From: Patescibacteria group bacterium
Lineage (GTDB): Bacteria > Patescibacteriota > Minisyncoccia > Phycocordibacterales > UBA9973
Reading direction: 5' to 3'
Length of the DNA: 64,000 nucleotides
Assembly (NCBI GenBank): GCA_038063915.1
Contig: JBBTUE010000001.1
Span: forward strand, 23,619-87,618
This document shows positions 19,710 to 36,683 of this stretch, one piece after another. The stretch's first letter is position 1; every line of letters starts with the position of its first letter. A model generated the notes under the pieces. It worked only from the letters and a program-made list of their open reading frames with translations, was not told the origin of the DNA and did no database searches. Made by a program: the position numbers and the translations under genes.

Positions 19710-19713
19710 TATT

Positions 19714-20547: not shown

Positions 20548-21420
20548 ATGGATAAGGAATACCTACCGAGTAAGAAGTTTATAGTGAGCGTAGCAACTAT
20601 TGTGATAGGTGTCTCGTTAATTTTTGGTATCTATAAGTTGGTAATATTTATAAAGAATAAGGTAGGTAAAGGAAAGTCGCCGACTGCGCTCATTGTAAAA
20701 GATTTGGTAGAGAAAGATGCCAACGAAAACGGTATCCCAGACTGGGAGGAATCATTATGGGGACTTGATCCCACAAAAAGTGGCTCCGAAAATAAGGAGT
20801 TTATCCTGGCAAAGCGGGCTACTATCGCAAAGGCTCATCCAGAATTAGTAGATAATACCAAGCCAGTATCAGAAAACGAAGCACTATCAAGAGATTTCTT
20901 CTCTATTATTATGTCACTACAGCAAGGTAATGCTCTAGACCAGACTTCAATTCAAGCAGTTTCAGAAGCAATAGGGAAGGACATAGAAGCCGAACCAATT
21001 GCCGATATATACACTAGGAAGACGGTAAAGGTTGTAGAATCTAACCCAAATACTATTAGTGACTATTACGGAGCATTTATCAATCTTGTAATAGAGTATA
21101 GTGATAAAAATATTGGCGACGAGCTGACCTTTATAAATCAAGGACTACAAAACAATGACCCAAAGGCCATAAAAGAAATAAACTCAATATCAAAGGCATA
21201 CAAAGCTTTCGGGGCTGAATTTATAAAGGTCCCAGTACCCAATACCTTGGTAAATACTCATATAAGTCTAGCAAATAACTATGAAAAGGTAGGGCAGATT
21301 GTTGCCAATATGACGGATTTACTCGGCAACCCATTAAATGGCATAAAATCATTTATAAATTATAAAAAATACAGCGATGCTCTGACAGATGATGTAGATA
21401 AACTTACTGCCGACCAATAA
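20548..21420 (+). CDS. membrane-anchored hypothetical protein (first gene of T4SS-like cluster)
   Basis: N-terminal TM (FIVSVATIVIGVSLIFGIYKLVIFI), then NGIPDWEESLWGLDP (thrombospondin-type-3/Ca-binding-like DxDxDG-WEE motif common in CPR surface proteins). Confidence 0.4.
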   Translation: MDKEYLPSKKFIVSVATIVIGVSLIFGIYKLVIFIKNKVGKGKSPTALIVKDLVEKDANENGIPDWEESLWGLDPTKSGSENKEFILAKRATIAKAHPELVDNTKPVSENEALSRDFFSIIMSLQQGNALDQTSIQAVSEAIGKDIEAEPIADIYTRKTVKVVESNPNTISDYYGAFINLVIEYSDKNIGDELTFINQGLQNNDPKAIKEINSISKAYKAFGAEFIKVPVPNTLVNTHISLANNYEKVGQIVANMTDLLGNPLNGIKSFINYKKYSDALTDDVDKLTADQ

Positions 21421-21449
21421 TATGTTATACTATAAGGGATAAATCTATT

Positions 21450-24182
21450 ATGAATAAAGGAATTACAAGAAAAATCGTTTCAACTTTAATCATCGCTTTA
21501 TTCCTAGTGGAAGCTGTTTTACCATTACAGACATATGCCGCTATCTCGACAAACGGTTTTACGACTCCTACGGGCCAAGCATCTACCCCTCTAAACTACG
21601 ACAATCCAAATAAGGGTGACAACCCATTTAAACCAAAAGTTAAAGATTTCTTGAACCCTCAGCTACTATCCCAAGTTGTTGGGTGTACTGGTATTGTAAA
21701 CAAGGTTTCGGACAAAGTACTTGCAGCTGTGGAGAAGGTTGCCGGTAAATTAATAGGCAAGGCGAAAAAGGCCGTAGAAGACTTTGTAAAAAAACAACTA
21801 GCAAAAAAGGTGAAAGATAACGTAGTTATTGTAGTAGTAGATGTCGTCAAAACAGCTTTAGCTGCAACAGTCACTTCACCTGGATCAGGATTTGGAAATG
21901 CAGCTGGTGATGCATTAGAGGACGTTGGAAGAGAGACTATAACGGCAAGAGATGCAAATGACGCAGGTGTGCAGAAAAGACAGGACAAAGCAGCGGAGGA
22001 TAAACTTGCAAAAGATAAAGACGACGAAAGAAAGAGAGTGCAAAAAGAATACAGAGAAAACTGCTTAAACGGTATCGCAATTCAACTTGCGAAAAATCAA
22101 CTCTCAGCAATGACCAAGCACACCATGAGTTGGATAAATACTGGATTTAGTGGAGATCCATTCTATGTCAAAAATGTAAGTAAATATATGGACGATATAG
22201 AAAGGGGAATCTTAGCAGAAGAAACAAGACTATTTAAAGGTGCAGGTAGTAGTATTAATTATCCATATGGTCAGGACTTTGCTCGAGGTGCAATATCGAC
22301 AGAGCAAGCATCTAAAAACTTTGCCGAATCAACAAAACAAAATCTTACCAGTTACCTCGCACCAGGAAAAACCGTTGATGATTTTGCGAATGATTTTTCC
22401 GCAGGTGGAAAACGTCCGTGGGATGCATGGTATTCGCTAACTCAAGATGATAATAATAACCCGTTCGGCTTTGCGGCAAATAATGCTAATAATATTATCG
22501 ACAAACAAGCAGACGCAAAGGAGCAGGCGAAGGCGGAGTTAGTAGAAGGGGAAGGGTATAGACCGCAAAAGGTCTGCAAGGAGTGGGCAAAACCAGACAA
22601 TAATTATGACGCTTCTATGTATTCAACCCCAGAAGAATGGTTTGCTTCGGAAGAATATGCCTCTTTATCTAAAACTAAATGCCTAGTGTATGAGACGGTT
22701 ACCCCTGGTAGTACTATAAAAGCTAAAGTTGATACATACATAAATACACCAGAGAATCAGCTCACATTAGTGCGGACAATGAACGATGCCCTAAACGCTT
22801 TTTTCACTATGATACTTGGCAAATTTACAAGTAAAGGAGGACTTGCTGGACTAAATCCAGCATTAAATATCCCTTCTGGGACTTCTGTTGGTGAAGAGAT
22901 AACGAGAAACATAAGATTCGATGAGGATGGATATGTAATGGTAGAAGATACTCCATACGGAGAAGGAATAATAGCTTCAAATACTACAACTGGAGTAAAT
23001 GTTGGTAATGGCTTCACTACACCTACAGCAACTAGTGGAGGTGGAGTAACGAATAGTTCCCATGCGTATATACAAGATGATGGTTTTGATATCACAAAAG
23101 ACCTTGGTAATATTTACGACCAAGACGGAGTGCTAATCAAAAAAGGTGTTATTCAAAATCAATACGACTACATAGATGCAATGGGTATCTATAGATCAGT
23201 CATTGCCGACGTACTGCCTGCTCTTGGCGAGCTTGATTATTGTATCCCGGGCCCGAATCCAAATTGGAGAGAGAACTCCAAAGAAGCGATAGACGCGTAT
23301 CTGGAGACCCTAACAGGTATAGGAGACGTGGGAGATGTGGGAGGACAACAATTTGAATATGCTCCAGAGGGTGCTTACGAATATCCTAAGCCGGTACCAG
23401 AAGTTCCTGCTAAAAAGAAACTATCATTCATTAAGAGATTGGCCATTATTATTAGTCCTACGGCGAGAATGAACGAAACGAGAAAGAAGTTTAAAGAGAT
23501 AAAGGAAAGAAGACAAAACGAAAAAGAGAGGGCTGTCATAGAGGCAGAGAATGAGAGAATTAGACTAAAGAACGAAAAAATAAGAGACGATATGTTAAAG
23601 GGTAAAAGACCACTCGACCCAATATTTATAGCCAACACTATTGGAAAAGATCGAGATTCTATTTTGAGAATGATTTCTCCAGAGAATACTGGGCTCGACC
23701 CCGTAAAACTTTTGGCAACCTTAGATGACTTTGAGGCATCAATAGATGCAACTTACGGCCTATCTGGTCCTATGCAAAACTACTGGAGCGGGAACAGTAA
23801 ATACTTGCAGATGTCACAAGAGGGCTTGAATCTGACAAAGAATATACCTGACTATATAGAAGAGATTGAGGCGGCCAAATCCGACTCGAGAGATTTGTTA
23901 GCCGAAGCAACTCCAAATCTCGACAAGCTAAAAGCAATTCAAATCAAAGTAAATGAGATAATAGCTGCCGCCCAGAAAAGAAGAAATGAGAAGGTGAGAA
24001 AGCAAGGTGGCCCCACTCTTAGCTCAGCATGTCTATTAAAAGAAAAGGTAACTTACACGGATTACAACGGCAAGATTATGTCTTCAGTTAGCGACAGGCC
24101 ACTGCCAATTATTAAAAGTAGGGAAGAAGTAATCAAAGACTACGCCCCTGTAGATAATTCATTAATAAAAGTATCCCAATAA
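21450..24182 (+). CDS. large secreted hypothetical protein (910 aa)
   Basis: Signal peptide (IVSTLIIALFLVEAVLPLQTYAA), then a long extracytoplasmic polypeptide with no catalytic motif recognisable. First large gene of the T4SS-like cluster; possible surface/adhesin component. Confidence 0.4.
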   Translation: MNKGITRKIVSTLIIALFLVEAVLPLQTYAAISTNGFTTPTGQASTPLNYDNPNKGDNPFKPKVKDFLNPQLLSQVVGCTGIVNKVSDKVLAAVEKVAGKLIGKAKKAVEDFVKKQLAKKVKDNVVIVVVDVVKTALAATVTSPGSGFGNAAGDALEDVGRETITARDANDAGVQKRQDKAAEDKLAKDKDDERKRVQKEYRENCLNGIAIQLAKNQLSAMTKHTMSWINTGFSGDPFYVKNVSKYMDDIERGILAEETRLFKGAGSSINYPYGQDFARGAISTEQASKNFAESTKQNLTSYLAPGKTVDDFANDFSAGGKRPWDAWYSLTQDDNNNPFGFAANNANNIIDKQADAKEQAKAELVEGEGYRPQKVCKEWAKPDNNYDASMYSTPEEWFASEEYASLSKTKCLVYETVTPGSTIKAKVDTYINTPENQLTLVRTMNDALNAFFTMILGKFTSKGGLAGLNPALNIPSGTSVGEEITRNIRFDEDGYVMVEDTPYGEGIIASNTTTGVNVGNGFTTPTATSGGGVTNSSHAYIQDDGFDITKDLGNIYDQDGVLIKKGVIQNQYDYIDAMGIYRSVIADVLPALGELDYCIPGPNPNWRENSKEAIDAYLETLTGIGDVGDVGGQQFEYAPEGAYEYPKPVPEVPAKKKLSFIKRLAIIISPTARMNETRKKFKEIKERRQNEKERAVIEAENERIRLKNEKIRDDMLKGKRPLDPIFIANTIGKDRDSILRMISPENTGLDPVKLLATLDDFEASIDATYGLSGPMQNYWSGNSKYLQMSQEGLNLTKNIPDYIEEIEAAKSDSRDLLAEATPNLDKLKAIQIKVNEIIAAAQKRRNEKVRKQGGPTLSSACLLKEKVTYTDYNGKIMSSVSDRPLPIIKSREEVIKDYAPVDNSLIKVSQ

Positions 24183-24192
24183 TAAGAAATTT

Positions 24193-24963
24193 ATGGAAAA
24201 TAATCCTAAAAAAAGTAAAGCTCTAATCATAACGATAATCGCGATCGTTGTGCTTGTAGCTGCTCTATACTTCTTGTTTAAAAATAGTGACAAAATTTTT
24301 GGCACAAAAGATACAGCCATTAGTAGACTATTTGCACCATTGCTTGGCTCGTCAAAAAAGAAAGCGGTGGATACTGTTAACAATACAAATACAGAACAGG
24401 GTGGGGGTACTACCGAAGACACCAGTGGAACTGTCAATAACGGGACAAATGAAGTAGTGGATGTAAATACAGGCAACAACCCGATAACAGGCGGTGTAAA
24501 CCCTATAACCCCACCACTAACACCTCTTCCGACTCCTGGAAATGATACTGCCAGTGGTGGATATACTCCTGCGCCAATTACTAACAACGATATATCACCG
24601 CTGCCTCCAATTAGAGCTCCTATCGATGAGCCGAAAATCTGCCCTGTTGAAGAAGAATTGGAATACACTAACGCAGAAAAAGACCAGCTTGCAGAACTGC
24701 TTCGTCAATATTATCTAATAGCTCCAGAGCTCAAAACTGCAGGTGAAGTCGCGATGATTAACGACGATGTAAGAAGAAATCAGGATCTAATAGATCATGC
24801 TGATACTTTAACTCTGCAATGTACTGCACAAAAGGTGAATCCAAAATACGCAGGCCCTAGTGCGACAAAGAATAATCCATATTATGGAAACTTAAATATC
24901 AAACCTGAGTTCTATGCTCCTAAACAATTCAATAGTTTAGAAGACGAGCTCAACATTTGGTAA
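24193..24963 (+). CDS. membrane-anchored hypothetical protein with Thr/Pro/Gly-rich linker
   Basis: N-terminal TM (ALIITIIAIVVLVAALYFLF), then a low-complexity NPITGGVNPITPPLTPLPTPGN region and a C-terminal globular part. Confidence 0.4.
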   Translation: MENNPKKSKALIITIIAIVVLVAALYFLFKNSDKIFGTKDTAISRLFAPLLGSSKKKAVDTVNNTNTEQGGGTTEDTSGTVNNGTNEVVDVNTGNNPITGGVNPITPPLTPLPTPGNDTASGGYTPAPITNNDISPLPPIRAPIDEPKICPVEEELEYTNAEKDQLAELLRQYYLIAPELKTAGEVAMINDDVRRNQDLIDHADTLTLQCTAQKVNPKYAGPSATKNNPYYGNLNIKPEFYAPKQFNSLEDELNIW

Positions 24964-24967
24964 CTAC

Positions 24968-27619
24968 ATGATAAGAAAACTCATCCCTTCCATCTTAATA
25001 GTTCTCATAGCCGTGAACCTATTCGCGCCTTTTACGCTTGGGATTGATAAAAAGAATAATATAGAAATAAAAAAATCAGTCGCGGAAGCTGACTTGTCTA
25101 TAACATTAGTAAAAATGAAGAGAACTAAAACATCAATCTCTTTTGGTTTTGATATTACACAACTAAGTAAGACAGATAACTTTGGCATAATAGCAGTGGT
25201 CACAAATAAAAAGGGAACTACTATGTCGAAAGAGTCTTTGGAGTTCATAAACTTCCAAGTTGGGTTAGGTGCTGGTAAAGACTGTGGAGCAATTAATGAT
25301 ACCCTTTTCACAATACCAAAAGATTCTAGAGTTGCTGGTGGTAGAGACGGTTGTGGTAGTAACTGGTTAAAAGATAATAGAAATGAGGGCTTGGCTACCG
25401 TAACTGTACCAAATTTAGTCAAAAATACACCTTATTATATAAGTTTTTTCGGCTATGCTGGAGATAAAGATATTGAAAAAAGTCTTGCCTTTCCAATATA
25501 CGACAGAGAAATTCGCACAACTTCTGATAACGAAGAAGATGATACTATAATGGAGGAACTTGGGACAACAAACTCAGACTCAGGGTACTTACCTTGGTGT
25601 ACTAGAGCTGTTTTTAAAGTTAATATTGGGGGTTGTTTTGCCCAAATTCTATACACAATTACTTTCAAGCCAACTTCATTTATTTTTGGGTTAGCTGGGC
25701 AGTTCTTTGACTTTACCTTCTTTTACTCCATAAGTGATAGCTCGTACCGATCAGGATTCGTAGTAGAGGGGTGGGGAGTAGTGCGTGACTTTGTAAATAT
25801 GTTCTTCATATTTGTCCTCCTCTATATTGCATTCTCGACAATATTATCTCTTCATGGATTTAAAACAAAAGAGATGATCATAAACGTTGTCATTATTGGA
25901 CTTCTTATAAATTTCAGTCTTTTCGCCACGCAAGTAATTATAGATACATCGAATATTCTGGCGCGCGTTTTCTATAACTCTGTAACGTCAGGCAGCGTAG
26001 ATGAAAGTACAAAGGAGTTTAAAGAAGAGAGGGGTGCACAAGGGGAGATTCAGCTTTCGGCACAAATTGTTAATATGGTTGATCCTCAGAAGCTTATAAT
26101 AAAAGCTTCAAGGGTCGGATCTACAGATAGAGGAACTACGGATAATTCGAATCAGTTTTCACGAGGTATAAGTGTTGGAACATTTATATTAGTGACTTTA
26201 CTTGCATCCGCGGTGAATGTAGTGGGTATAATTGTTTTTCTTTCTGTTGGCCTTATATTCTTAGCCCGAGTTATAGGCCTTTGGTTTGCGATGATATTCG
26301 TGCCATTCGCATTCTTCTCATATACCGTACCTGCCATGCAAGACATAGAAATGATTGGTTGGAAGAAGTGGTGGCCGGAAACTTTAAAATTGGCATTCCT
26401 AGCACCAATCTTTATGTTCTTTATGTATCTAATCATTAAATTCTTGGGTGGAAAAGAATTCTTGAAGCTCAACGGAGACAGCGGGGCAGCATTTATAATA
26501 GCAATCATTGTGCCTTTCATTTTTATAATGATTCTCCTACTCCGAGCAAAAGGTATTGCAAAAGATTTGTCTGGGAAAATTGGAGCAGCAATTACAAAAG
26601 GTGCCGTTGTAGCGGGAGGCCTTGCAGTTGCTGGTGGTGGATTGGCAGCTGCGGGTGGAGCAGCCCTTGGTAGGGGTCTGATAACGAACCCAATGAAAAT
26701 GATGCAATCGAGCCAGGCTACTAGAACTGCTGCACTAAAGAATTTCAGTATGGTTAAACCAGCTACTTGGGGCAAGGCTATGAGCGCACGTATGGCGAAT
26801 TTTAGTGTTAAGGGTGGCGGTAAGGGAGTTGGCACAGGAGTATATGATGTAGCTACCAGAAGAGAAATCAAAAGGGAGGGATCTAATAAACTAAGAGATA
26901 GACTACTTGGTATTAAAGATAGAAAAGCTGACAAGGGTCATGCATCACAATTACTCGACGAACAAGCGGATAAAATACAGAAGGGTGCAAAATACTCAGA
27001 TCTTTCTGCTCCAGAACAAGCTAAAGCTAAGACAACTATTAACAACAACGAGGTATCAAAAGCTTTGTTTGGTAAGGAATCTGATAAATTAGATAACTCA
27101 CAGATTTCTATGCTTTCAGGTATTGTAAATACAAACGGAGCAATCAATACTGCAGCACTGTCTACAGCAGCAACTACCTTGGGTAAAGATATATCGAAAT
27201 TCTACGATCCTACTAATGCTGACCCAACAAAAAGAGCAGTAAAGGATGCCAATCATCATGAGAAGATATACAACAAACCAGATAAAGATCACGTGGGTAA
27301 CGCGCTTGCATTCGCAGCGGGTGGAACGTACGACATAAGAAATATGAAGAGTGGTGGCCTTACTGCACTTGGCATTGCCTCAGCATTCCTAGGAATCGCT
27401 CCTGTATTTGCGCTCGCTATGTCAGCTCATACATCTGGCGCCCTAAGGACAGGTTTGAAAAAGTTCACAGGAGTAGATCATGGATTCTCGCAAAAGGACT
27501 TCTTGAAAGACTTGAGTCACACTTTAGACACAGCATTAAGTAGTATTAAAATTAGTGTAAAAACCGACGGCAAGGGTCACAGTGATGCAAAAGCAAAAGT
27601 AGGTGGGGGAGGACATTAA
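24968..27619 (+). CDS. TrbL/VirB6-like polytopic T4SS membrane protein with N-terminal secreted domain
   Basis: 883 aa: signal peptide plus a ~220-aa extracytoplasmic domain, 5-7 predicted TM helices (e.g. FVNMFFIFVLLYIAFSTILSL; VVIIGLLINFSLFATQVIID; FILVTLLASAVNVVGIIVFLSVGLIFLARVIGLWFAMIFVPFAFF; LAFLAPIFMFFMYLIIKFL; FIIAIIVPFIFIMILLL) and a Gly/Ala-rich hydrophilic tail (GAVVAGGLAVAGGGLAAAGGAALGRG) as in TrbL. Position next to the PrgI/VirB3 and VirB4 genes supports the call. Confidence 0.5.
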   Translation: MIRKLIPSILIVLIAVNLFAPFTLGIDKKNNIEIKKSVAEADLSITLVKMKRTKTSISFGFDITQLSKTDNFGIIAVVTNKKGTTMSKESLEFINFQVGLGAGKDCGAINDTLFTIPKDSRVAGGRDGCGSNWLKDNRNEGLATVTVPNLVKNTPYYISFFGYAGDKDIEKSLAFPIYDREIRTTSDNEEDDTIMEELGTTNSDSGYLPWCTRAVFKVNIGGCFAQILYTITFKPTSFIFGLAGQFFDFTFFYSISDSSYRSGFVVEGWGVVRDFVNMFFIFVLLYIAFSTILSLHGFKTKEMIINVVIIGLLINFSLFATQVIIDTSNILARVFYNSVTSGSVDESTKEFKEERGAQGEIQLSAQIVNMVDPQKLIIKASRVGSTDRGTTDNSNQFSRGISVGTFILVTLLASAVNVVGIIVFLSVGLIFLARVIGLWFAMIFVPFAFFSYTVPAMQDIEMIGWKKWWPETLKLAFLAPIFMFFMYLIIKFLGGKEFLKLNGDSGAAFIIAIIVPFIFIMILLLRAKGIAKDLSGKIGAAITKGAVVAGGLAVAGGGLAAAGGAALGRGLITNPMKMMQSSQATRTAALKNFSMVKPATWGKAMSARMANFSVKGGGKGVGTGVYDVATRREIKREGSNKLRDRLLGIKDRKADKGHASQLLDEQADKIQKGAKYSDLSAPEQAKAKTTINNNEVSKALFGKESDKLDNSQISMLSGIVNTNGAINTAALSTAATTLGKDISKFYDPTNADPTKRAVKDANHHEKIYNKPDKDHVGNALAFAAGGTYDIRNMKSGGLTALGIASAFLGIAPVFALAMSAHTSGALRTGLKKFTGVDHGFSQKDFLKDLSHTLDTALSSIKISVKTDGKGHSDAKAKVGGGGH

Positions 27620-27637
27620 TGGTAAAAAATTAATCTC

Positions 27638-28705
27638 ATGGATCAAACACAATTACAACAACAAATAGCTCTATATTACTCAAAACTTTCACCAGATTTA
27701 CAGGCGGTATTTTCTAGTATGAAGTGGATGGACAGTCTCAGGATTATCAACACTAAATACACTTTAAACGAAGCTCAAATACAGACGCTGGGAACAGAAA
27801 CTACTTTACTACTGATTGGTATCATAAACTTAGAAGAATTCGCGGAAACTCTATATAACGAGCTCGGGATAGAGAGTGATGTGGTAGAGAGAATAATAAC
27901 AGAGGTAAACGATTCTATATTAGAACCAATACTACCATCCCTTGATCAAGCATATCAAAATCATGTTGGATCTCTAGTAGCAGAGAAATACGAGGGATTG
28001 GAAAAATTAGACGAGCGTTTCCTTAAGCTGCCGAAAGAAGTCCAAAAAGCTATTAGCGAATCTCACTACCAGCAGACCCTATACACTATCGCAAGTAAAC
28101 AAAAACTTTCTATGGAGCAGATGGGAAGTCTTGAAGAAGCTACGAATAAGGTGTTGCTTGGTATCATTCACCCAGACAAGTACGAAACTGAGTTAAAAGA
28201 AAAACTAGGCCTGCCTGCAGATAAAACCACAGAGCTTGTAAATGACGTGAATGAAGGTGTGCTGAAAAATATCCGAGAAATATTAAAATCACACTGGAAC
28301 GACGGTAAAATCGGAGAAGTAAAACCAGAAGATGAAGTACCTATACCTCCATACGCACAAGTGAAAACTCCTGAAGCGCCAAGAGTTGAAATATCTGTCC
28401 CAAGTATAAATATAGCAGAAGTGCCAATCGAACTTCCTAAAGGAGAATCAGATATATATCAGAACGCAGGAATAGAGATGGTAAGTGAAGAAAAATCAGA
28501 CAAAGAAGACTTGGCCAAGAGTATTATTGGTAGTAAGCTGAGTCACTCTGTCGTTAGTAAACCTATCCTCAGCGATCATTCATTACCAAAAGTAAACTCT
28601 GCTCAGCCAGCCCAGCAACCTCCGGCTCCTGCTCCAGCACCAAGTAGCCCAGCTCCTGTTGCTCCTCCAGCACCAAAGCACGACCCTTACCACGAAGCCA
28701 TATAG
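27638..28705 (+). CDS. hypothetical cytoplasmic protein with Pro/Ala-rich C-terminus
   Basis: 355 aa, no TM; C-terminal QPAQQPPAPAPAPSSPAPVAPPAPK. Embedded between the VirB6-like and VirB3-like genes. Confidence 0.4.
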   Translation: MDQTQLQQQIALYYSKLSPDLQAVFSSMKWMDSLRIINTKYTLNEAQIQTLGTETTLLLIGIINLEEFAETLYNELGIESDVVERIITEVNDSILEPILPSLDQAYQNHVGSLVAEKYEGLEKLDERFLKLPKEVQKAISESHYQQTLYTIASKQKLSMEQMGSLEEATNKVLLGIIHPDKYETELKEKLGLPADKTTELVNDVNEGVLKNIREILKSHWNDGKIGEVKPEDEVPIPPYAQVKTPEAPRVEISVPSINIAEVPIELPKGESDIYQNAGIEMVSEEKSDKEDLAKSIIGSKLSHSVVSKPILSDHSLPKVNSAQPAQQPPAPAPAPSSPAPVAPPAPKHDPYHEAI

Positions 28706-28727
28706 CATTTTGTGATACAATATAAAT

Positions 28728-29141: not shown

Positions 29142-29167
29142 AAATTAATATATGATATAATGCTTTT

Positions 29168-29815
29168 ATGGCAATCAATGCTCGTGCTGCTCAGGATTTC
29201 GTACCAATTAAAGAGATTCGTAATGGCGTCATAATACTCAAAGATGGCGGGTTTCGAGCAATCTTAATCGCTTCATCTATCAATCTATCTCTAAAATCTG
29301 CTGACGAGCAGAGTGCAATTATCAATCAATTTCAATCATTCTTGAATGGTTTAGATTTTTCTACCCAGATAGTCGTCCAATCAAGAAGGCTAGACATAAG
29401 ACCTTATCTTCTGACTCTAGAAGCTAGAGAGAAAGAGCAGACTGAAAAACTTTTGAAAATACAGACGAAGGAATACATAGATTTTATAAGAGCTTTCACT
29501 GACCAAGTAAATATAATGACCAAGACATTCTTCATCGTGGTACCATATAGCCCGACAATTATGAAGTCAAGTGAAGGTATTGTCGACAGATTGATAGGCG
29601 GTGGCCAAAAGAAACAAATTGAAAATACTAAAAAGGCTTTAGATATGGCAAGTTTTGAAGAGAAGCGTAGCCAACTCGACCAGAGAGTCGGAGTCATCAT
29701 ATCTGGACTTGGCGGACTTGGTATACGTAGCACTCAGTTGAAAACCGAAGAGATAGTCGAGCTTTTCTACAAGACATTTAATCCTGGAGATATTAGTCAG
29801 GGTATGAAATTATAA
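29168..29815 (+). CDS. VirB4-family ATPase, N-terminal domain (separate ORF)
   Basis: QDFVPIKEIRNGVIILKDGGFRAILIASSINLSLKSADEQSAIINQFQSFLNGLDFSTQIVVQSRRLD matches the VirB4/TraC N-terminal domain pattern. The stop (29813-29815) is separated by 1 nt from the ATG of the ATPase ORF. Confidence 0.55.
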   Translation: MAINARAAQDFVPIKEIRNGVIILKDGGFRAILIASSINLSLKSADEQSAIINQFQSFLNGLDFSTQIVVQSRRLDIRPYLLTLEAREKEQTEKLLKIQTKEYIDFIRAFTDQVNIMTKTFFIVVPYSPTIMKSSEGIVDRLIGGGQKKQIENTKKALDMASFEEKRSQLDQRVGVIISGLGGLGIRSTQLKTEEIVELFYKTFNPGDISQGMKL

Positions 29816-29816
29816 T

Positions 29817-31655
29817 ATGGGGATTTTCTCTAAAATTTTTGGTGGTAGTAATGTATCTCGAGCAAAGAGTACTCTTGTGATGCCTGTTATCCCTTCTGAA
29901 ATATATAGAGCGGCAACTCTTGAACTCCAAGACATCATCGCGCCTTCGGCTCTTGAAATTACCCCGAAGGGTATCAATCTCGGAGACAAAATTGCTCGTA
30001 CATTTTTTGTTATTTCATACCCAAGATATCTGACCGATAACTGGTTTTCGCCGATTATTAATCTTGATAAAGTTTTTGACGTTTCTATATTTATTCACCC
30101 TATCGACACTTCGGATATATTACGATCTTTCCAAAAGAAAGTAGCCGAGGTTCAAAGTCAGATATCTATCCGCGAATCAAAAGGCCTTGTTCGTGACCCA
30201 ATGCTTGATACTGCCTATCGTGACTTGGAAAGCCTGCGTGATAACTTGATGCAAGCCCAAGAGAAAATGTTTGATGTCGGCTTATACATCACTATCTATG
30301 CAGACAACGAGAACGATTTATTCAAAACTGAAAGTGAGATCAAGTCATTACTTGAATCAAAGCTTATATATTTAAAACCTGCATTGTTCCAGCAAGACGA
30401 GGGGTTTAAAAGTATTATTCCTCTCGGCACAGATTTGCTTGGGATACATCAAAAGCTCAATACTGAGCCACTCTCTAGCTTATTTCCATTCGTATCTTTT
30501 GACCTGACCTCTGATAAGGGTATTTTATACGGGGTAAATCGTCACAATTCTAGCCTTATAATATTTGATAGATTCTCTCTACCAAACTACAACTCCATCA
30601 CTTTTGCAACGTCGGGCGCTGGTAAATCTTATGCCACCAAGCTCGAAATTATACGCACGCTCATGTTTGATACCGAAGTAATAGTCATCGACCCAGAACG
30701 CGAGTACGAATATTTATCTGAAGCTGTTGGTGGTAGATACTTTAATATCGCACTTTCTTCTGACCACCATATCAATCCTTTTGACCTGCCTATACCGAGC
30801 TCTGACGAGACTCCAGCTGACGTGCTTCGGGCAAACACTATAAACTTGGTGGGGCTATTCCGGATAATGCTCGGAGGTCTCACTCCAGAAGAAGATTCTA
30901 TTATCGACCGCGCCATCACTGAAACCTATGCTCTTAAAGACATCACTGCTGATTCTAACTTTGCAAATATTGAACCGCCACTTCTCACAGACTTTGAAAT
31001 GGTGTTGGCTGGCATGGAAGGAAGTGGATCTCTCATTCAACGTTTGGCGAAATTTACTCACGGCTCTTGGGCTTCATTCCTCAACCAAGCATCAAATGTA
31101 GACATCAATCGTAAATTCGTCGTCTTCTCAGTGCGAGACATGGAAGACGAGCTCAAACCTGTAGCCATGTATATCGTGACTCATTATATATGGAATGCGA
31201 TTAGAAAAAATATAAAGAAAAGATTACTCGTAGTAGACGAGGCGTGGTGGATGATGAAATCAGAAGATACTGCCTCATTCCTATACTCTATTGCAAAGAG
31301 AGGACGTAAATACTACCTCGGGCTTGCCACTATCACCCAAGACGTAGGGGACTTCATGAAAAGCCCTTATGGAGTGCCAATTGTCACCAACTCGTCGATT
31401 CAACTATTGTTAAAACAGTCACCTTCGACTGTCGACGTACTACAGAAAACTTTTAATTTAACAGACGAAGAAAAATACCTACTTCTTGAAGCAAATGTCG
31501 GAGAGGGGATATTCTTTGCTGGGCTCAAACACGTAGCAGTGAAGACTATCGCATCATATACTGAGGACCAGATTATAACCTCCGATCCATCACAAATCCT
31601 TGCTATCAAGAAAGCAAAGGACGACTTGGCGGCAACAGAAGCAGTAAAACCTTAG
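29817..31655 (+). CDS. VirB4/TrbE/CagE-family T4SS ATPase, C-terminal ATPase portion
   Basis: Walker A FATSGAGKSYATK, VIVIDPEREY...INPFDL, Walker B LLVVDEAWWMM (DEAW), motif C GLATITQDVGDF. No TM and no VirD4-type features. Confidence 0.8.
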   Translation: MGIFSKIFGGSNVSRAKSTLVMPVIPSEIYRAATLELQDIIAPSALEITPKGINLGDKIARTFFVISYPRYLTDNWFSPIINLDKVFDVSIFIHPIDTSDILRSFQKKVAEVQSQISIRESKGLVRDPMLDTAYRDLESLRDNLMQAQEKMFDVGLYITIYADNENDLFKTESEIKSLLESKLIYLKPALFQQDEGFKSIIPLGTDLLGIHQKLNTEPLSSLFPFVSFDLTSDKGILYGVNRHNSSLIIFDRFSLPNYNSITFATSGAGKSYATKLEIIRTLMFDTEVIVIDPEREYEYLSEAVGGRYFNIALSSDHHINPFDLPIPSSDETPADVLRANTINLVGLFRIMLGGLTPEEDSIIDRAITETYALKDITADSNFANIEPPLLTDFEMVLAGMEGSGSLIQRLAKFTHGSWASFLNQASNVDINRKFVVFSVRDMEDELKPVAMYIVTHYIWNAIRKNIKKRLLVVDEAWWMMKSEDTASFLYSIAKRGRKYYLGLATITQDVGDFMKSPYGVPIVTNSSIQLLLKQSPSTVDVLQKTFNLTDEEKYLLLEANVGEGIFFAGLKHVAVKTIASYTEDQIITSDPSQILAIKKAKDDLAATEAVKP

Positions 31656-31697
31656 TAAAAATTGGCAATCTTCCCCTAGTTATCATATAATATAGAG

Positions 31698-32687
31698 GTG
31701 ATACTATCTCGAGGAAAAATCTTATTCGGTCTGCTTTTTTCGCTAAGTGTATTATTTACACCAGGAATAGGAAGTGCAGCATCGGAAATAGGGCTACAAA
31801 GTGGTGATATTGAAGTAGAGACAATACCAGAGAACCCAGAGCCATATCAAGACGTCACTATCAACTTAACTAGCTTTGCAACTGACTTGAATAAGGCTAC
31901 TATCGTCTGGCAAAGTGGCGGACGTACAGTTCTATCTGGAATAGGCCGTACTAGTTATTCATTTAAGGCGCTTGGACCAAATATAACTATAACCTTGGAC
32001 GTAAGCATAACTCCACCCAACTCTACTGATAAAGTTACAAAAAGAATCTCTATTAACCCCTCCGAGATAGATATACTATGGGAAGGGATTGACTCTTATA
32101 CTCCACCATTTTACAAAGGTAAATCATTCGTATCTAGCGGTGGAATGATCAAAGTAGTCGCTCTCCCAACTACAAGCACAAGTGGTAGAACCAATGCTAC
32201 GTATAGTTGGAAAAATAACGACAACGCAGTATTAAATGCTTCTGGGTACAATAAAGATTCTTACATCTTTGTAAACGATGAATTAAACACCAGAGAGAAC
32301 ATATCAGTCACTGCTTCAACTGTGAACGGGAGTTATAATGCAACCAAAAATTTAAATATCCCGATAGTAAATCCAAAAATTATTTTTTATAAGAAATCTC
32401 CAACCGAAGGAGTATTGTACAACAAAGCACTTATAAATGAGACATTTATAAGTGAAGACGAATTTACTTTAGTAGCTGTGCCTTACTTTTTGTCACTAAA
32501 AGGAAACGAGAACGACTTTAGTTATAAGTGGCAAATAAACGGGGAAGGGATAGAAACTCCTTCCAGAAAAACCGAGCTTACTGTACGCCCATCATCCAAA
32601 GGGGGGTATGCAACTATTAGCTTAGTATTAGAAAATTTAAACGCCTTTTTCCAAAAGGCGAGCGGACAGATAAAGATAAACTTATAG
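31698..32687 (+). CDS. secreted beta-rich hypothetical protein
   Basis: Signal peptide (ILFGLLFSLSVLFTPGIGSAAS), then repeated beta-strand-rich segments (e.g. YQDVTINLTSFATD / TITLDVSITPPNS). T4SS-associated position. Confidence 0.4.
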   Translation: MILSRGKILFGLLFSLSVLFTPGIGSAASEIGLQSGDIEVETIPENPEPYQDVTINLTSFATDLNKATIVWQSGGRTVLSGIGRTSYSFKALGPNITITLDVSITPPNSTDKVTKRISINPSEIDILWEGIDSYTPPFYKGKSFVSSGGMIKVVALPTTSTSGRTNATYSWKNNDNAVLNASGYNKDSYIFVNDELNTRENISVTASTVNGSYNATKNLNIPIVNPKIIFYKKSPTEGVLYNKALINETFISEDEFTLVAVPYFLSLKGNENDFSYKWQINGEGIETPSRKTELTVRPSSKGGYATISLVLENLNAFFQKASGQIKINL

Positions 32688-32688
32688 T

Positions 32689-35337
32689 ATGAAAAAATTA
32701 TACGGATACATTTTAATAGTAATACTCCTCTTGACTTCAATTCTACCACTCACTACTAGCGCGATAGTTAAGGGAAGTATTAATTTTTCTCAAATCACTT
32801 CAGATCTAAGTGGTGAATATACTCTCAATAATAAAATCTTAAGTTTTAAAGTAGCAAACAAGGCAGTAAATGGAACATACAAATCAGTCACGTATTCGCT
32901 GATCGTGCGAGTCGCTAAATCCCCAGTCAAAAACGGGACATACGAGTTTGTAACCCAGAAAGGGTCTGTGTCCGAACCCCTTTATATATCAAATTCTGAG
33001 GAAGCGAATTCAGGATATAAATCAAATAATAGATTGGCGGAGGGGCAGTTTGATAATATTGTTGATGGTAAATATTTTTTGGTTATTCAAGTAGTAAATA
33101 AGTTCCAAACAAAATATGATGGTACTAACGATACTGTAGATATAAATAAGAACGTACAGTCTAGTGAGATAACCGTGCCGGAACCAGCAAATACTGCCAT
33201 AAATCCAATCCTTTCAGTCACTGCAGTAACTACTGATAAAACAATCCAAGTTTCAGTTAGTTACGATACGAAGATTGATACCTCAGTTGATGGCATCTCA
33301 GGAGTTATCACTGGTAACGTGGTTGGTATGGGAGGTGGAGCTTATACCCAAGTACTTGACCCAACTTTTAACCCCAAAGATGGGAGAGTGGGCGCAACTG
33401 GTAAAAAAACATTTGGATTTGCAGAAATAGCTAATTTAACTCCAAACATAAAGTATACAGTTACTGTAACAGCAAAAGCAGGGACTGTAACAAAATATAC
33501 AAAGACTGCTAACTTTACGACAAAGAAAGCAACTGTGGTGACAAGCCCACCGGTTACTAATAACGGGGACCAGACTGGGAACCAAAATACTAATCCACCG
33601 ATAAAGGATACAAACAATCAGGACCAAGCTACTACTTTTGATCCTAAAAAAGATACTCCGGTTGATAACAATTCATACACACTACTCGCTCCAATAGGTG
33701 GGGTAGATAAAGTTCCAATAAACGATATTGGTAGTTATTTTAACATCATCTTCCAAATAGCTATCGGCATATGTGGCGCGTTAGCAGTGGTAATGATAGT
33801 TATCGGCGGAGTGCAGTATATGGGGACTGAATCAGTATTTGGTAAGACAGAAGCCAAAGGACAGATAGTGAAGGCAATTTTAGGGCTTTTGATAGCACTA
33901 GGCGCATATGCACTGTTGAATACCATTAGCCCTGCTCTGACGGGGAAAGGGGGGCTGACATTGGCCACGGTAAACGTATCAATTATGGACACTGTTGACG
34001 TACCCGAAGGAGGTGATATAGATGAAGTAATTACTGACGAGCAAGTTAAAAGTGGAAAACTACCTGGTATTAAGTGTGCCTCTGGATCACCTTCAAATGG
34101 TTTTTGTATGTTTGGCACGATAGATAATCCAAAACCGACTGGAGAAATACCAGCATTGGTTGATTTTTTGAAAAAAAATCCAAATCAGAGAATAACCCAA
34201 ATAGATATAATACACAAAAATAAAGTCGAAAAGTTTGTTTTCACTTTGAGTGATGGTTCTAAATACGCTACTATGGGTATAGGGCATGGTCCAGGCAACC
34301 AAAAATCAACCATGGACTGGAAATTTTCTGAACAAGGAAAAGAATACAGTGGTGACATGAAAACCCCTATAAGAACGTGGACAATTATTAATAAAGATAG
34401 AGCGAAAAACCAAAATACTGTAATAAGAAGTACTCGTAAAGGTAAAGATGGCCTTGGTTACAGTATGGGTGGAGCAAAGTTCAACCTTAATTATAGAGGA
34501 ATCGCAATACACTCGAACAGGAAAAATAGTCAGGGAACTTCAGCGGGTTGTATATTAATGTATAACGACGACTTGTTTGCACTTTATCCTTACATAAAAA
34601 CAAATGGTAGTATTAAGGTTGTGACTACCACTACAGATACATACCCTGGGAGTACTTACACAAATCCTAGTACAAATACGAATACAAACATCGGCGCTAG
34701 TTCCCAGAAATTATGTACCGATGTGGCTAGTTGTCAAAAGTTGTGCACTTCAACTAACAATGGAAACTCATACACCGGTAATCCCCCAGGAGTTCTAGAC
34801 CCAAATAGCACAACTGCATTAACTGGTATTCCCCTTGTTGAAGCTCGGTGTAAAGACTGTAACAATGTAATACCGAGAGGATCGCCTCAAGTCATTGCAG
34901 CTCTAAAGAAAATCGAACCAGCAGTTAAGGAATTAATTAGTAAAAATGAGATACCGAACCGAAAATATAATTTTAGGGTATATTCTGCATATCGATCAGC
35001 CAAAGACCAAATACGAGTTATGTGTATTAACCCAAAGACAGGTGGGACAAACACTGTCACACAAGCTGATTTAGGAAACCTATACGCCTACCCAGCAACA
35101 AGTAACCATGGCACTGGTACTGCTGTTGACTTCAAATTCTACTTTGATAATACAGAAGTATTCAACTATGGAGCTACAAGAAGCGAGGGGAGTATAGAAA
35201 AAATTATGGACAAAGCTGGTCTTCAAAGACTTATCGGGGAATCATGGCACTTCCAAACAAATAGTAGCTCAAAAACATGCAAGTACCCTAGTTGCCCTGC
35301 ACCTAAATATGAGATAGATACTACCCTCGAAGTTTAA
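32689..35337 (+). CDS. multidomain secreted protein: Ig-like N-domain + VirB2/TrbC-like pilin hairpin + L,D-transpeptidase(YkuD)-like domain + M15/VanY-like zinc peptidase domain
   Basis: Signal peptide. Pilin-like two-helix segment YFNIIFQIAIGICGALAVVMIVIGGVQYMGTESVFGKTEAKGQIVKAILGLLIALGAYALLNTISPALTGKGG (compare the VirB2 ...TLTGGG end). YkuD-like IAIHSNRKNSQGTSAGCILMYNDD. M15B/VanY-like YSAYRSAKDQ, ATSNHGTGTAVDF (SxHxxGxAxD), and ESWHFQ. Confidence 0.6.
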   Translation: MKKLYGYILIVILLLTSILPLTTSAIVKGSINFSQITSDLSGEYTLNNKILSFKVANKAVNGTYKSVTYSLIVRVAKSPVKNGTYEFVTQKGSVSEPLYISNSEEANSGYKSNNRLAEGQFDNIVDGKYFLVIQVVNKFQTKYDGTNDTVDINKNVQSSEITVPEPANTAINPILSVTAVTTDKTIQVSVSYDTKIDTSVDGISGVITGNVVGMGGGAYTQVLDPTFNPKDGRVGATGKKTFGFAEIANLTPNIKYTVTVTAKAGTVTKYTKTANFTTKKATVVTSPPVTNNGDQTGNQNTNPPIKDTNNQDQATTFDPKKDTPVDNNSYTLLAPIGGVDKVPINDIGSYFNIIFQIAIGICGALAVVMIVIGGVQYMGTESVFGKTEAKGQIVKAILGLLIALGAYALLNTISPALTGKGGLTLATVNVSIMDTVDVPEGGDIDEVITDEQVKSGKLPGIKCASGSPSNGFCMFGTIDNPKPTGEIPALVDFLKKNPNQRITQIDIIHKNKVEKFVFTLSDGSKYATMGIGHGPGNQKSTMDWKFSEQGKEYSGDMKTPIRTWTIINKDRAKNQNTVIRSTRKGKDGLGYSMGGAKFNLNYRGIAIHSNRKNSQGTSAGCILMYNDDLFALYPYIKTNGSIKVVTTTTDTYPGSTYTNPSTNTNTNIGASSQKLCTDVASCQKLCTSTNNGNSYTGNPPGVLDPNSTTALTGIPLVEARCKDCNNVIPRGSPQVIAALKKIEPAVKELISKNEIPNRKYNFRVYSAYRSAKDQIRVMCINPKTGGTNTVTQADLGNLYAYPATSNHGTGTAVDFKFYFDNTEVFNYGATRSEGSIEKIMDKAGLQRLIGESWHFQTNSSSKTCKYPSCPAPKYEIDTTLEV

Positions 35338-35351
35338 CTTATAACAATAAT

Positions 35352-36683
35352 ATGCCAAGAAAAACAATAATCATTTTCATAACTGTATTTATCCTTATCG
35401 GTGGAGGGGTTCTTGGCTATTATTACTACACAAGTAAATCAGGAACTAATAATGGTAGTACAGATAGTACTGGATATAATCAATTTAATCCTTTTGGTAA
35501 CAACCAAGGGGCTGACTCTTCTTCAAATACAAACGGTGATCAAAACACCAGCGATACCATAGGGGGTAATGGGGAAGTAGTCGAAGATGGAGGGTTACCG
35601 CAGGTTTTAAAACTCCATAAAATAACAGACTTCGCAGTAGCGGGGGCAACATACTTTGAGGAAGAAAGGCTAATACCAGAAACGGTAGTGGCGGAACCTG
35701 AACAAGTAGTAGAACCTTCACCAAAAACTAAGGCTAAAATAGTAGTGAAGAAGCCTGTGGCGCCAAAATTTGAAATAGTTCCATCTCTACGTTATGTAGA
35801 GCGAGTGACTGGTCACATATACCAGATGTATTTGGACAACAAAGTTGAGAGTAAAATTTCGAACTCAACTATTCCAAGTATCTACGAAGCTACTTGGGAC
35901 AGTAAAGCTACTTCTGTTATTTACAGGTACTTAGCGGAAGATAATAAAACTATTAATAGTTTTATGGCTACTCTTGGTGGGGCAAAGGGAGAATTTTTGC
36001 CAACAAATATTACTAGTGTAAGCTTGTCACCAGATGGAACTAAATTCTTTTATTTAACTAAGGTCCCGGGAAGTGTGATTGGGTACACTAGAGCATTTGG
36101 TGAGGATAAAATATCAAAAGTTTTCAATTCTCCATTTTCTGAGTGGCTATCGCAGTGGGCATCCCCACAGAAAATATTTCTAACAACAAAACCTTCCTCT
36201 TCTGTAGGGGGTAGCCTTTTCATGTTAAATATAGGTACAGGTTCAATGTCAAAAGTACTTGGGGGAGTATTAGGCCTTACAACTCTAGCTAACCCTGATG
36301 GATCAGCCGTTCTATACAATTCTTCTACTTCATCGGGCCCAATGCTCCAAGTAATGAATATAGACAAGCATACAACCCTAGATATTTTCACTTATGGGTT
36401 ACCAGAGAAATGCATATGGAGTCTGGATAAAATTAATATTTATTGCGCAGTACCAAATGAAATTAGTGGTAAAGATTACCCGGATACTTGGTACCAAGGA
36501 AGGATATCTTTCGACGATCATTTTGTAAAAATAAATACAGAGACACAAAGTACGACAGAGATATTAGACTCGGTAAATGAAACTGCTGTTGATGCCACAA
36601 ATCTATTTCTAAGTAAAAAAGAGGACACACTATTTTTCATAAATAAAAAAGACTCCACCCTCTGGAGCCTAGACTTAAAATAA
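35352..36683 (+). CDS. membrane-anchored hypothetical protein with TolB/PD40-like beta-propeller repeats
   Basis: N-terminal TM (IIIFITVFILIGGGVLGYYYY), a Gly/Asn/Ser-rich linker, then repeats such as LSPDGTKFFYLT, NPDGSAVLYNS, WSLDKINIYCAVPN, suggestive of PD40/TolB-type blades. Confidence 0.35.
   Translation: MPRKTIIIFITVFILIGGGVLGYYYYTSKSGTNNGSTDSTGYNQFNPFGNNQGADSSSNTNGDQNTSDTIGGNGEVVEDGGLPQVLKLHKITDFAVAGATYFEEERLIPETVVAEPEQVVEPSPKTKAKIVVKKPVAPKFEIVPSLRYVERVTGHIYQMYLDNKVESKISNSTIPSIYEATWDSKATSVIYRYLAEDNKTINSFMATLGGAKGEFLPTNITSVSLSPDGTKFFYLTKVPGSVIGYTRAFGEDKISKVFNSPFSEWLSQWASPQKIFLTTKPSSSVGGSLFMLNIGTGSMSKVLGGVLGLTTLANPDGSAVLYNSSTSSGPMLQVMNIDKHTTLDIFTYGLPEKCIWSLDKINIYCAVPNEISGKDYPDTWYQGRISFDDHFVKINTETQSTTEILDSVNETAVDATNLFLSKKEDTLFFINKKDSTLWSLDLK

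Follow-up and report, generated by a model that had tools for sequence, protein, structure and literature searches.

Chromosomal, non-conjugative type IV secretion systems (T4SSs) located near the replication origin are present in nearly all ultra-small Candidate Phyla Radiation bacteria (CPR; Patescibacteria) and were described between 2023 and 2025. Quiñonero-Coronel et al. (2025) reported VirB4 in 2,417 of 3,035 Patescibacteria genomes, forming a monophyletic clade nested in the mating-pair-formation class FATA (MPF-FATA) (PMC12102498). In their survey, the commonest of the associated components is TrsD, genes for PrgI/VirB3, VirB6 and VirB2-like pilins are found close to virB4, and the neighbours of virB4 in Paceibacteria include dnaA, dnaN, rnpA, ksgA and rpmH (PMC12102498). 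Relaxases are almost absent from Patescibacteria, with a few genomes carrying them, and VirD4-like type IV coupling protein (T4CP) homologues occur in most genomes, mostly far from virB4 (PMC12102498). Here we analyse one such locus, an 11-gene T4SS cluster at 20548-36683 of a 64-kb stretch of contig JBBTUE010000001.1 from a Patescibacteria group bacterium (GCA_038063915.1); this whole stretch of 64,000 nucleotides is referred to below as the window.

Experimental evidence on these systems comes from Southlakia epibionticum ML1, in which transposon sequencing showed the T4SS genes SEML1_0006-0019 to be essential for epibiotic growth (Wang et al. 2023; PMC10633639); that system has neither a recognisable coupling protein nor a recognisable relaxase (PMC10633639). 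According to a 2025 review, competence in S. epibionticum depends on the type IV pilus and ComEC, and deletion of comEC ends competence, not viability; the same review speculates that the T4SS is a conduit for host signals or molecules (PMC12857230). In cultured Paceibacterales, the genes for T4SS pilins rank with the most strongly expressed of those whose function is unknown (PMC10936435). In T4SS architecture generally, VirB3 tethers VirB4, while VirB6 forms the membrane platform or channel base and the site of pilin-subunit docking (PMC11294453).

A Paceibacteria member of the Patescibacteria-clade T4SS

The cluster belongs to this already known system, the published Patescibacteria-clade T4SS derived from MPF-FATA, and is not a new kind. 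It displays all five of the clade's distinguishing features, namely the affinity of its VirB4, an adjacent TrsD, PrgI near virB4, a VirB2-like pilin near virB4, and a chromosomal location near dnaA with no relaxase or T4CP beside virB4. With all 11 genes present and its limits clearly drawn, it makes a tidy Paceibacteria example. We read it as a vertically inherited, chromosomal, non-conjugative T4SS of a groundwater Paceibacteria bacterium, derived from MPF-FATA, in which an ATPase, a membrane platform formed by g4 and a wall-cutting g10 serve the epibiont-host interface; we assign this reading a probability of roughly 0.65.

A co-oriented run of 11 open reading frames (ORFs) on the + strand, numbered g1 to g11, fills 20548-36683 exactly, with intergenic gaps of 1-42 nt, the largest of them between virB4 and g9 (31655-31698). 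This bears out the T4SS-like block that an earlier, sequence-only reading of the window had proposed here, with a correction to its gene count, since thirteen genes had been claimed and 11 ORFs are found (290, 910, 256, 883, 355, 137, 215, 612, 329, 882 and 443 aa, in order). Independent gene prediction for another contig carrying these genes (ENA assembly record Hain_H43_01um), which covers g5 to g11 as complete genes, agrees, giving identical lengths for these seven T4SS genes. The GC content of the cluster, 0.38-0.41, is the same as that of its flanks. The components on which the assignment is built are the following.

24968-27619, + strand: g4, VirB6-like polytopic membrane protein, 883 aa (fold-level support)
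28728-29141, + strand: g6, PrgI/VirB3-like small membrane protein, 137 aa (Pfam PrgI PF12666)
29168-29815, + strand: g7, TrsD/TraD-family protein, 215 aa (NCBIfam TrsD NF041427, 1e-7)
29817-31655, + strand: g8, VirB4 ATPase, 612 aa (NCBIfam conju_CD1110, above cut-off)
32689-35337, + strand: g10, mosaic surface protein, 882 aa (Pfam T4SS_pilin, YkuD, VanY and Peptidase_M15)

VirB4 matches the NCBIfam CD1110 family at 2e-110 (370 bits, the cut-off being 325), covering profile positions 183-732, with further matches to P-loop_TraG (9e-25), AAA_10 and DUF87. Both of its Walker motifs are intact, A reading ATSGAGKS (aa 264-271, nt 30606-30629) and B reading LLVVDE (aa 470-475, nt 31224-31241). The 137-aa PrgI passes the PF12666 profile at E=5.6e-9 (36.9 bits; cut-off 27), confirming its earlier designation as PrgI/VirB3-like; it also matches TcpE (2.3e-4) and has a transmembrane (TM) segment at aa 43-61. 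TrsD matches positions 2-117 of the CD1110 VirB4 model and positions 104-236 of the mycoplasma VirB4 model, and a precomputed PF26593 TraC-like match is on record for it. It is the counterpart of the N-terminal region of full-length VirB4, carried on a separate gene.

The TrsD stop and the VirB4 start lie 1 nt apart (TAA-T-ATG), and VirB4 had previously been described as split. The identification of VirB4 stands, and the notion of a lesion gives way to a conserved pair of genes, TrsD and VirB4, because the 120 listed VirB4 homologues (88-100% identity) are 597-627 aa long, ~610 aa being typical, and a 211-234-aa ORF precedes VirB4 in 20 of the 20 loci compared. A frameshift or pseudogene was considered and ruled out, as TrsD and VirB4 sizes are constant in related loci and TrsD is a known separate family.

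Among the 120 best VirB4 homologues, every one with a named source comes from Patescibacteria, Paceibacterota, Nomurabacteria or plain 'bacterium'. Among the matches listed, the plasmid VirB4s nearest to it share 27-37% identity and come from Firmicutes and Actinobacteria, all monoderm, with many annotated as CD1110 family. VirB4 appears to group with Patescibacteria VirB4s and to have a monoderm (FATA) affinity, an affiliation drawn from best homologues, curated models and plasmid relatives. In the system, VirB4 would be the motor and PrgI its membrane tether.

In g4, a signal/TM segment precedes an FN3-like ectodomain (aa ~27-205), followed by a helical TM core (aa ~220-545, nt 25625-26602); the C-terminal region is long and rich in Gly and Lys. 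It has a predicted VirB6 fold and polytopic topology, and its gene lies beside those of VirB3 and VirB4. The TrbL profile finds no match in g4 at E<=0.1, nor in 26 family members (g4 plus 25 orthologues) at E<=1. There is likewise no NCBIfam match and no PDB profile match for g4, and no bridge to TrbL through remote relatives, the best 150 of 14,189 relatives all being close. A precomputed tag for PF19590, a putatively TrbL-like family, on six g4 homologues could not be reproduced. The evidence supports a VirB6-like assignment of g4 by predicted fold, not by sequence profile. The earlier label "TrbL/VirB6-like" is therefore upheld at the fold level and not supported at the profile level, and the check it had proposed gave a divided answer, PrgI and VirB4 passing their cut-offs and TrbL finding no match. 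The g4 family also ends in a conserved Gly-Gly-Gly-Gly-His(-His) tail (...GGGGH in the window protein, nt 27560-27619), in which G881, G882 and H883 are conserved at a level of at least 90% across 50 homologues.

Comparison with described systems

The cluster shares with the Patescibacteria-clade T4SS (PMC12102498) the VirB4 kinship, the separate TrsD, PrgI, a VirB6-like protein, a pilin and the same neighbours, and nothing essential differs. The S. epibionticum system also resembles it in several respects. Its VirB4 gene, at 1839 bp, has the same length, and it includes a TrsD-like protein upstream, PrgI, a large VirB6-like polytopic protein, PF18895 pilins and peptidase/lysozyme genes beside virB4, with locus tags at the very start of the gene numbering. 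However, Saccharibacteria carry an array of ~6 small separate pilins, whereas here one module resides inside the 882-aa g10. The S. epibionticum PrgI is 300 aa long, compared with 137 aa here, and its NTF2/VirB8-like protein, SEML1_0012, has no recognised equivalent in the window cluster. Essentiality has been shown in S. epibionticum only.

The staphylococcal pGO1/pSK41 Trs and enterococcal pIP501 Tra systems (MPF-FATA, pGO1 subclass) are alike in having a separate TrsD/TraD by VirB4, a VirB3-like protein and a monoderm architecture without an outer-membrane core. They differ in being plasmid-borne conjugation systems with a T4CP, a relaxase, an origin of transfer (oriT), an SLT+CHAP hydrolase and no pilin. 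The pGO1 subclass is also without a VirB6 homologue (PMC12102498), whereas the window cluster has other wall enzymes, a VirB2-like module and a VirB6-like protein.

For pCF10 (prgH-prgI-prgJ-prgK) and CTn2/CD1110-type elements, the order VirB6-like, VirB3-like, VirB4, wall enzyme is roughly kept, and the window VirB4 scores best against CD1110. The parallel with prgH-prgI-prgJ-prgK drawn in the sequence-only reading holds only loosely; genes for a cytoplasmic protein, for TrsD and for a secreted protein intervene here, and the wall enzyme is a different one, fused to a pilin. VirB4 identity to these elements lies at 27-37% among the matches listed, equivalents of PcfC and PcfG are absent, and the locus is part of the chromosomal core. 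More broadly, Gram-positive conjugative systems have no VirB2-like pilin, in contrast to the fusion of a pilin to a wall enzyme observed here. The integrative conjugative elements (ICEs) of Mollicutes offer a further likeness, in that the Mbov_0397 VirB4 model is matched by VirB4 (5e-75) and TrsD (1.7e-10), and the NCBIfam Mbov_0395 pilin-like model by g10 (1.3e-3). These scores fall far below the cut-offs of those models, however, and the mycoplasma systems are ICE-borne and conjugative.

Conservation and chromosomal setting

A scan of species-representative genomes provided 80 loci from Paceibacteria/Nomurabacteria-type metagenome-assembled genomes, some of their records being titled 'uncultured Candidatus Saccharibacteria'. 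In 64 of the 69 loci with enough sequence, the ten genes compared (g1, g2 and g4-g11) keep the same order and orientation, a recurrence beyond chance. VirB4 is 75-95% identical across the 80 species loci, TrsD orthologues are 48-85% identical (79 loci) and PrgI orthologues 39-78% (75 loci). Median identity is graded, from 80% for VirB4, 60% for TrsD and 49% for PrgI to 37% for g11, 36% for g4, 35% for g9 and 26% for g1 and g2, the g4 and g2 values deriving from partial-length matches. In each of the 48 loci compared, VirB4 shows a higher identity than DnaA (by 15.7 points on average), and in 57 of 57 a higher one than YidC, which suggests a constraint on VirB4 unusually strong for a secretion ATPase.

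The flanks are equally constant, with ksgA immediately 5' of g1 in 25 of 25 loci and yidC antisense directly after g11 in 59 of 59. In the window, the genes on either side, all outside the system, are as follows.

17775-19709, 5' of ksgA: pcrA/uvrD (UvrD-helicase, 2e-89)
19672-20511, + strand: ksgA/rsmA rRNA dimethyltransferase (RrnaAD, 7e-56), the upstream boundary
36685-37140, - strand: jag (Pfam match), the downstream boundary
37149-37907, - strand: yidC (Pfam match)
38138-38458, - strand: rnpA (Pfam match)
38471-38611, - strand: rpmH (L34 peptide read)
38631-40094, + strand: dnaA (Pfam match), followed by dnaN

The T4SS cluster directly adjoins the replication-origin gene set, dnaA lying ~2 kb 3' of its end. 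Given the synteny, the housekeeping flanks and the graded conservation with VirB4 above DnaA, the pattern points to a core machine that is inherited vertically and whose exterior evolves fast, and not to a mobile element.

These observations bear on the alternative that the cluster is a conjugative element, an integrated ICE that may be degenerate or functional, with its relaxase and coupling protein located elsewhere or too divergent to be recognised. VirB4, TrsD and PrgI do have their homologues among conjugative MPF-FATA genes, the second gene upstream encodes a PcrA/UvrD helicase, and most Patescibacteria genomes have VirD4-like proteins elsewhere, a few also having relaxases (PMC12102498). 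However, the cluster occupies the same chromosomal slot in dozens of species, an integrase, a repeat boundary and a compositional break were all not found, and VirB4 is under stronger constraint than DnaA. No relaxase or T4CP was found within 64 kb, and the published phylogeny indicates class-level vertical inheritance with rare inter-class transfer (PMC12102498). A conjugative element is, in our assessment, very unlikely. As an identity for this particular locus, an integrated ICE was rejected on the conserved housekeeping flanks and the synteny across species.

DNA-processing genes and DNA uptake

The search for DNA-processing genes used a Pfam scan of every non-nested ORF of at least 100 aa in the 64-kb window, with the unannotated ones also run against NCBIfam. 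None of these ORFs belongs to a VirD4/TcpA-type coupling protein, relaxase or integrase family, and the window's seven Walker-A proteins are all identified (ComM, PcrA, VirB4, DnaA, TsaE, PilB and RuvB). A second VirB4-like ATPase or T4CP was found neither in the window nor within ±10 kb of virB4 in the 80 loci, using phmmer with VirB4, which has limited sensitivity for distant VirD4. Conjugative MPF-FATA systems are marked by a relaxase and T4CP beside the MPF genes and by a mobile-element location (plasmid, or ICE with integrase and att sites); neither mark was found in the window. Such systems also have a VirB1-type hydrolase (SLT and/or CHAP/NlpC) and a VirB8-like NTF2 protein; g10 carries YkuD and VanY/M15, some of its orthologues carrying SLT or NlpC/P60. 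The lack of a VirD4-type ATPase and a relaxase noted in the sequence-only reading accordingly holds for the 64-kb window, where the pair of neighbouring relaxase and VirD4 genes that it had named as counter-evidence was not found among the ORFs scanned. Its remark that no oriT is visible is also consistent with the layout, as the intergenic gaps of the cluster (<=42 nt) are too short to hold one inside it. The lack of a relaxase and a coupling protein in the window and of room for an oriT inside the cluster, taken together with the Saccharibacteria genetics, suggests a non-conjugative system.

A relaxase- and T4CP-free system could instead import DNA, as does the ComB system of Helicobacter pylori. 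Under this alternative, the cluster would be a ComB- or Ced-like competence T4SS taking up DNA from the host or the environment, either to obtain nucleotides or for transformation. CPR bacteria are unable to make nucleotides de novo (PMC10633639), and VirB4 weakly matches the archaeal proteins CedB (7.6e-8) and CedD (0.011). Yet the CedB match amounts to 31 bits against a cut-off of 700, and thus to generic VirB4-family similarity, and the CedD match to 14.5 bits against 600; no CedA or ComB family match appears in the Pfam and NCBIfam scans. Two further genes of the window had been cited in this connection.

8400-9968: comM
47443-49212, - strand: pilB-type T2SSE ATPase

Both genes are present, but they are ordinary chromosomal genes ~10-20 kb from the cluster and add little to the argument; comM, which would favour uptake by its presence in the same window, is ~10 kb away with unrelated genes between. 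In S. epibionticum, moreover, comEC deletion abolishes competence with viability kept, whereas the T4SS is essential (PMC12857230), so the essential role of the T4SS is not ComEC-linked DNA uptake. A DNA-uptake machine is therefore unlikely. The earlier proposal of a DNA-uptake or host-interaction apparatus, not a conjugative one, keeps its non-conjugative part, with the DNA-uptake half weakened by these genetics.

A pilin module fused to peptidoglycan enzymes

The most distinctive protein of the cluster is g10, which consists of a signal peptide, an N-terminal immunoglobulin (Ig)/FN3-like domain, a VirB2-like T4SS_pilin two-helix module, a YkuD domain and a VanY/M15 domain, in that order. The pilin module (aa 325-420, nt 33661-33948) matches T4SS_pilin PF18895 at 2.3e-5, with 24.8 bits, just below the cut-off of 26.6. 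The YkuD domain, of L,D-transpeptidase fold (aa 508-640, nt 34210-34608), scores 1.1e-8 and contains H608...SAGC621. The VanY/M15 domain, a LAS metallopeptidase domain (aa 745-860, nt 34921-35268), matches VanY at 2.6e-5 and Peptidase_M15 at 4e-5, with the motifs HGTGTAVD (807-814) and ESWH (851-854). T4SS_pilin is detected in 41 of 45 positional orthologues of g10 (best 9e-10) and TrbC/VirB2 in 4. The Pfam matches and the presence of the module in these 41 orthologues confirm the fusion of a pilin with a cell-wall enzyme that had been claimed for this gene; the parallel with a PrgK-type hydrolase does not extend to the enzymes themselves, which are YkuD and VanY/M15, not SLT/CHAP.

Across related species, the pilin module is the only conserved part of g10. 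On its 3' side, orthologues carry VanY (9), NlpC/P60 (9), YkuD (6), M15_4 (2), SLT_2 (2), SLT (1) or Amidase_5 (2), others being without assignment, such that the post-pilin domains recognisable by Pfam are peptidoglycan enzymes of ~7 families. On its 5' side lie TIG, Big_1, Filamin or FN3-like domains. In a set of 73 g10-type proteins from ~70 species, the C-terminal parts fall into 20 clusters unlinked by BLAST and the N-terminal parts into 30. The YkuD-bearing C-terminal part of the window protein clusters with relatives whose VirB4 identity is 80-86%, not with the closest ones (92-95%).

No ORF of the window other than g10 has a pilin module. The cluster might be an assembly machine for a surface structure, such as a pilus or adhesive stalk, or for wall remodelling and opening, with no substrate passing through it. 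In canonical systems VirB4 is the pilus-biogenesis ATPase and VirB6 the pilin-assembly platform (PMC11294453); in the window cluster the pilin module, the Ig-like proteins and a propeller-like protein are all extracellular, and a coupling protein to recruit substrates is absent. Against this, a sole pilin module embedded in an 882-aa multidomain protein is hard to fit into helical pilus packing, and T4CP-less T4SSs that secrete substrates do exist, namely Ptl and Brucella VirB (PMC12102498). We consider such a purely structural machine improbable.

The variability of g10 allows two views of the protein itself. Under a null reading, any wall-cleaving domain can fill a VirB1-like role, and the domain turnover of g10 is neutral. 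Alternatively, the Paceibacteria pilin module might not be a pilus subunit but a conserved membrane or T4SS anchor displaying recombining, polymorphic ectodomains, wall-cleaving on the C-terminal side and Ig-like on the N-terminal side, that are directed at the host envelope and act as a host-range determinant or a T4SS-presented effector. This second view is compatible with the data because of the 20 C-terminal and 30 N-terminal clusters and the grouping of the window's C-terminal part with distant relatives; we hold it tentatively, as a doubtful possibility. If true, g10 would be analogous to polymorphic toxin systems and not to a housekeeping VirB1. The 2025 survey (PMC12102498) neither describes nor mentions fusions of a pilin with peptidoglycan enzymes, and a literature text search for PF18895 gave no other relevant paper. 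A single pilin-like protein with swappable cell-wall-cutting domains is possibly the one new detail of this locus.

Accessory proteins

The remaining six genes of the cluster are listed below; g1, g2, g5, g9 and g11, which the 2025 survey does not describe (PMC12102498), are Paceibacteria-specific.

20548-21420, + strand: g1, bitopic membrane protein, 290 aa (TM aa 11-29 by hydropathy)
21450-24182, + strand: g2, signal-peptide protein, 910 aa (hydrophobic segment aa 9-27 ending ..TYA|A)
24193-24963, + strand: g3, bitopic membrane protein, 256 aa (TM aa 11-29, low-complexity linker, small C-terminal domain)
27638-28705, + strand: g5, cytoplasmic protein, 355 aa (no TM segment, no signal peptide)
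31698-32687, + strand: g9, secreted protein, 329 aa (signal-like N-terminus)
35352-36683, + strand: g11, bitopic membrane protein, 443 aa (TM aa 5-23, Ser/Gly/Asn-rich linker, ~350-aa conserved ectodomain)

These six proteins have no significant Pfam or NCBIfam family match, and profile-versus-PDB searches of g1, g2, g9 and g11 returned nothing significant, including no NTF2/VirB8-like match. N-terminal hydrophobic anchors or signal peptides are seen on g1, g2, g3, g9, g10 and g11, in keeping with the membrane-anchored and secreted proteins that had been proposed. In g1, a conserved acidic D-x-D-G..DWEE..LWGLDP motif (aa ~57-75) precedes a mainly helical ectodomain, with D57, W66, L70 and G79 invariant. 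The g2 protein has a conserved, Cys-containing core (aa ~200-620) as well as long helices or coiled coil, with C79, C205, C376, C411, C598 and C861 invariant in the protein, and its positional orthologues are 19-42% identical over the core. The AlphaFold2 (AF2) model of g2 is helical and of low confidence (pLDDT 60, pTM 0.35), and finds no fold match in Foldseek (best E=3). We propose that g2 may serve as an extracellular scaffold or stalk. Detectable in 10 of 80 related loci, g3 is a lineage-restricted, optional component.

The cytoplasmic, Pro-rich protein of the earlier description corresponds to the 355-aa g5. Its N-terminal ~220 aa are conserved, its C-terminal tail is Pro/Ala-rich, and its orthologues lie 5' of PrgI in 45 loci; it shows no similarity to a DUF5663 protein encoded nearby. 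A role as cytoplasmic adaptor of the ATPase complex is possible. Full-length orthologues of g9 lie directly 3' of VirB4 in 78 loci (28-61% identity). The protein has three ~100-aa repeats, in each of which the motif Y/I-x-W-x-x-N(G) occurs, and matches aBig_2 weakly (4e-4); from these features the repeats are probably tandem Ig-like beta-sandwich domains. Full-length g11 orthologues occur in 66 loci (28-54% identity), always as the last gene before the antisense jag/yidC. In a mixed set of 50 g11/g5 orthologues, 6 match PD40 below threshold (best 0.0029) and 2 match NBCH_WD40; the TolB structure 7mx5 is matched at E=0.041. These weak matches suggest that the g11 ectodomain is probably a beta-propeller; the anchor of the "PD40-like anchored protein" proposed earlier is secure, and its PD40 character faint.

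Proposed working of the system

VirB4 with its separate TrsD, PrgI/VirB3 and, by fold, the VirB6-like g4 are the parts established by homology. In the proposed mechanism, VirB4 would dock on the cytoplasmic membrane through PrgI/VirB3 and the g4 platform, forming the translocon. From its domains and topology, the pilin module of g10, with two TM helices behind a signal peptide, would be embedded in the membrane, placing the two ectodomains outside the cell. There, YkuD and VanY/M15 would cut or remodel peptidoglycan such that the apparatus can span the wall, whether the cell's own, the host's or both. The anchored or secreted, fast-evolving g1, g2, g3, g9 and g11 may form an extracellular scaffold, stalk, contact surface or adhesive part. 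Most likely, the machine would move proteins or other molecules across the epibiont-host interface, a function central to the host-dependent lifestyle.

Several points weigh against this reading. Experimental support for an epibiont-host role comes from Saccharibacteria only, the function of the Paceibacteria system being putative, and the wall enzymes of g10 may simply remodel the cell's own wall. No VirB8-like component was identified in the cluster by the profile-versus-PDB searches of g1, g2, g9 and g11. The loci in which VirB4 was compared with DnaA were picked by VirB4 similarity, which introduces a mild ascertainment bias. The genome may encode a VirD4-like protein at another site, as most Patescibacteria do, and DNA transfer through an unrecognised relaxase is possible. 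The broader view of the cluster as a monoderm-style, T4SS-like CPR system of uncharacterised mechanism, already put forward in the sequence-only reading, is supported by the VirB6-like and VirB3-like proteins, VirB4, the wall enzyme and the housekeeping flanks.

Other features of the window

In the gap between virB4 and g9, positions 31662-31691 hold an 11/12 sigma-70-like match (TTGGCA-18-TATAAT) that may be an internal promoter. In the promoter and terminator scan, counts of sigma-70-like matches and of terminators were no different from those in shuffled sequence. An Rfam scan of the window matched tRNA-Lys alone.

About 9 kb 5' of the cluster, 9995-11591 (- strand) encodes two further peptidoglycan-active proteins, a 408-aa M23 peptidase with a LysM domain and a small PG_binding_1 protein of 125 aa. 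Between 11864 and 17395 lie adjacent ORFs of 869 and 972 aa that are very Lys/Glu-rich and have no family match except a weak LTD match. The stretch in which they lie has a strong purine skew (GC skew 0.28, AT skew 0.34), and the second ORF contains a hydrophobic, Gly-rich central segment. Both are co-oriented with the T4SS, with the DUF5663 gene, pcrA and ksgA in between. Downstream, the pilB-type ATPase gene neighbours a family-less 281-aa ORF and a 774-aa DUF11 repeat protein, within 47443-52618, and may belong to a locus for a type IV pilus or the cell surface. At 59252-60838 (- strand), one 528-aa ORF combines a LexA DNA-binding domain, Peptidase_S24 and a C5 cytosine DNA methylase, and is abutted by a Bsp6I-family restriction endonuclease gene (58688-59251, + strand). 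The region 58688-60838 resembles a restriction-modification pair in which the methylase is joined to a self-cleaving repressor of LexA type.

Implications

CPR/Patescibacteria, which live attached to other microbes, represent a large part of bacterial diversity, and the T4SS is among the few conserved envelope machines that they have kept. It is essential in the sole lineage tested, and in the Paceibacteria locus analysed here the ATPase module is more constrained than DnaA, while the extracellular parts turn over fast. The mosaic protein that joins a pilin module to peptidoglycan enzymes offers a concrete experimental handle on wall specificity and host range.

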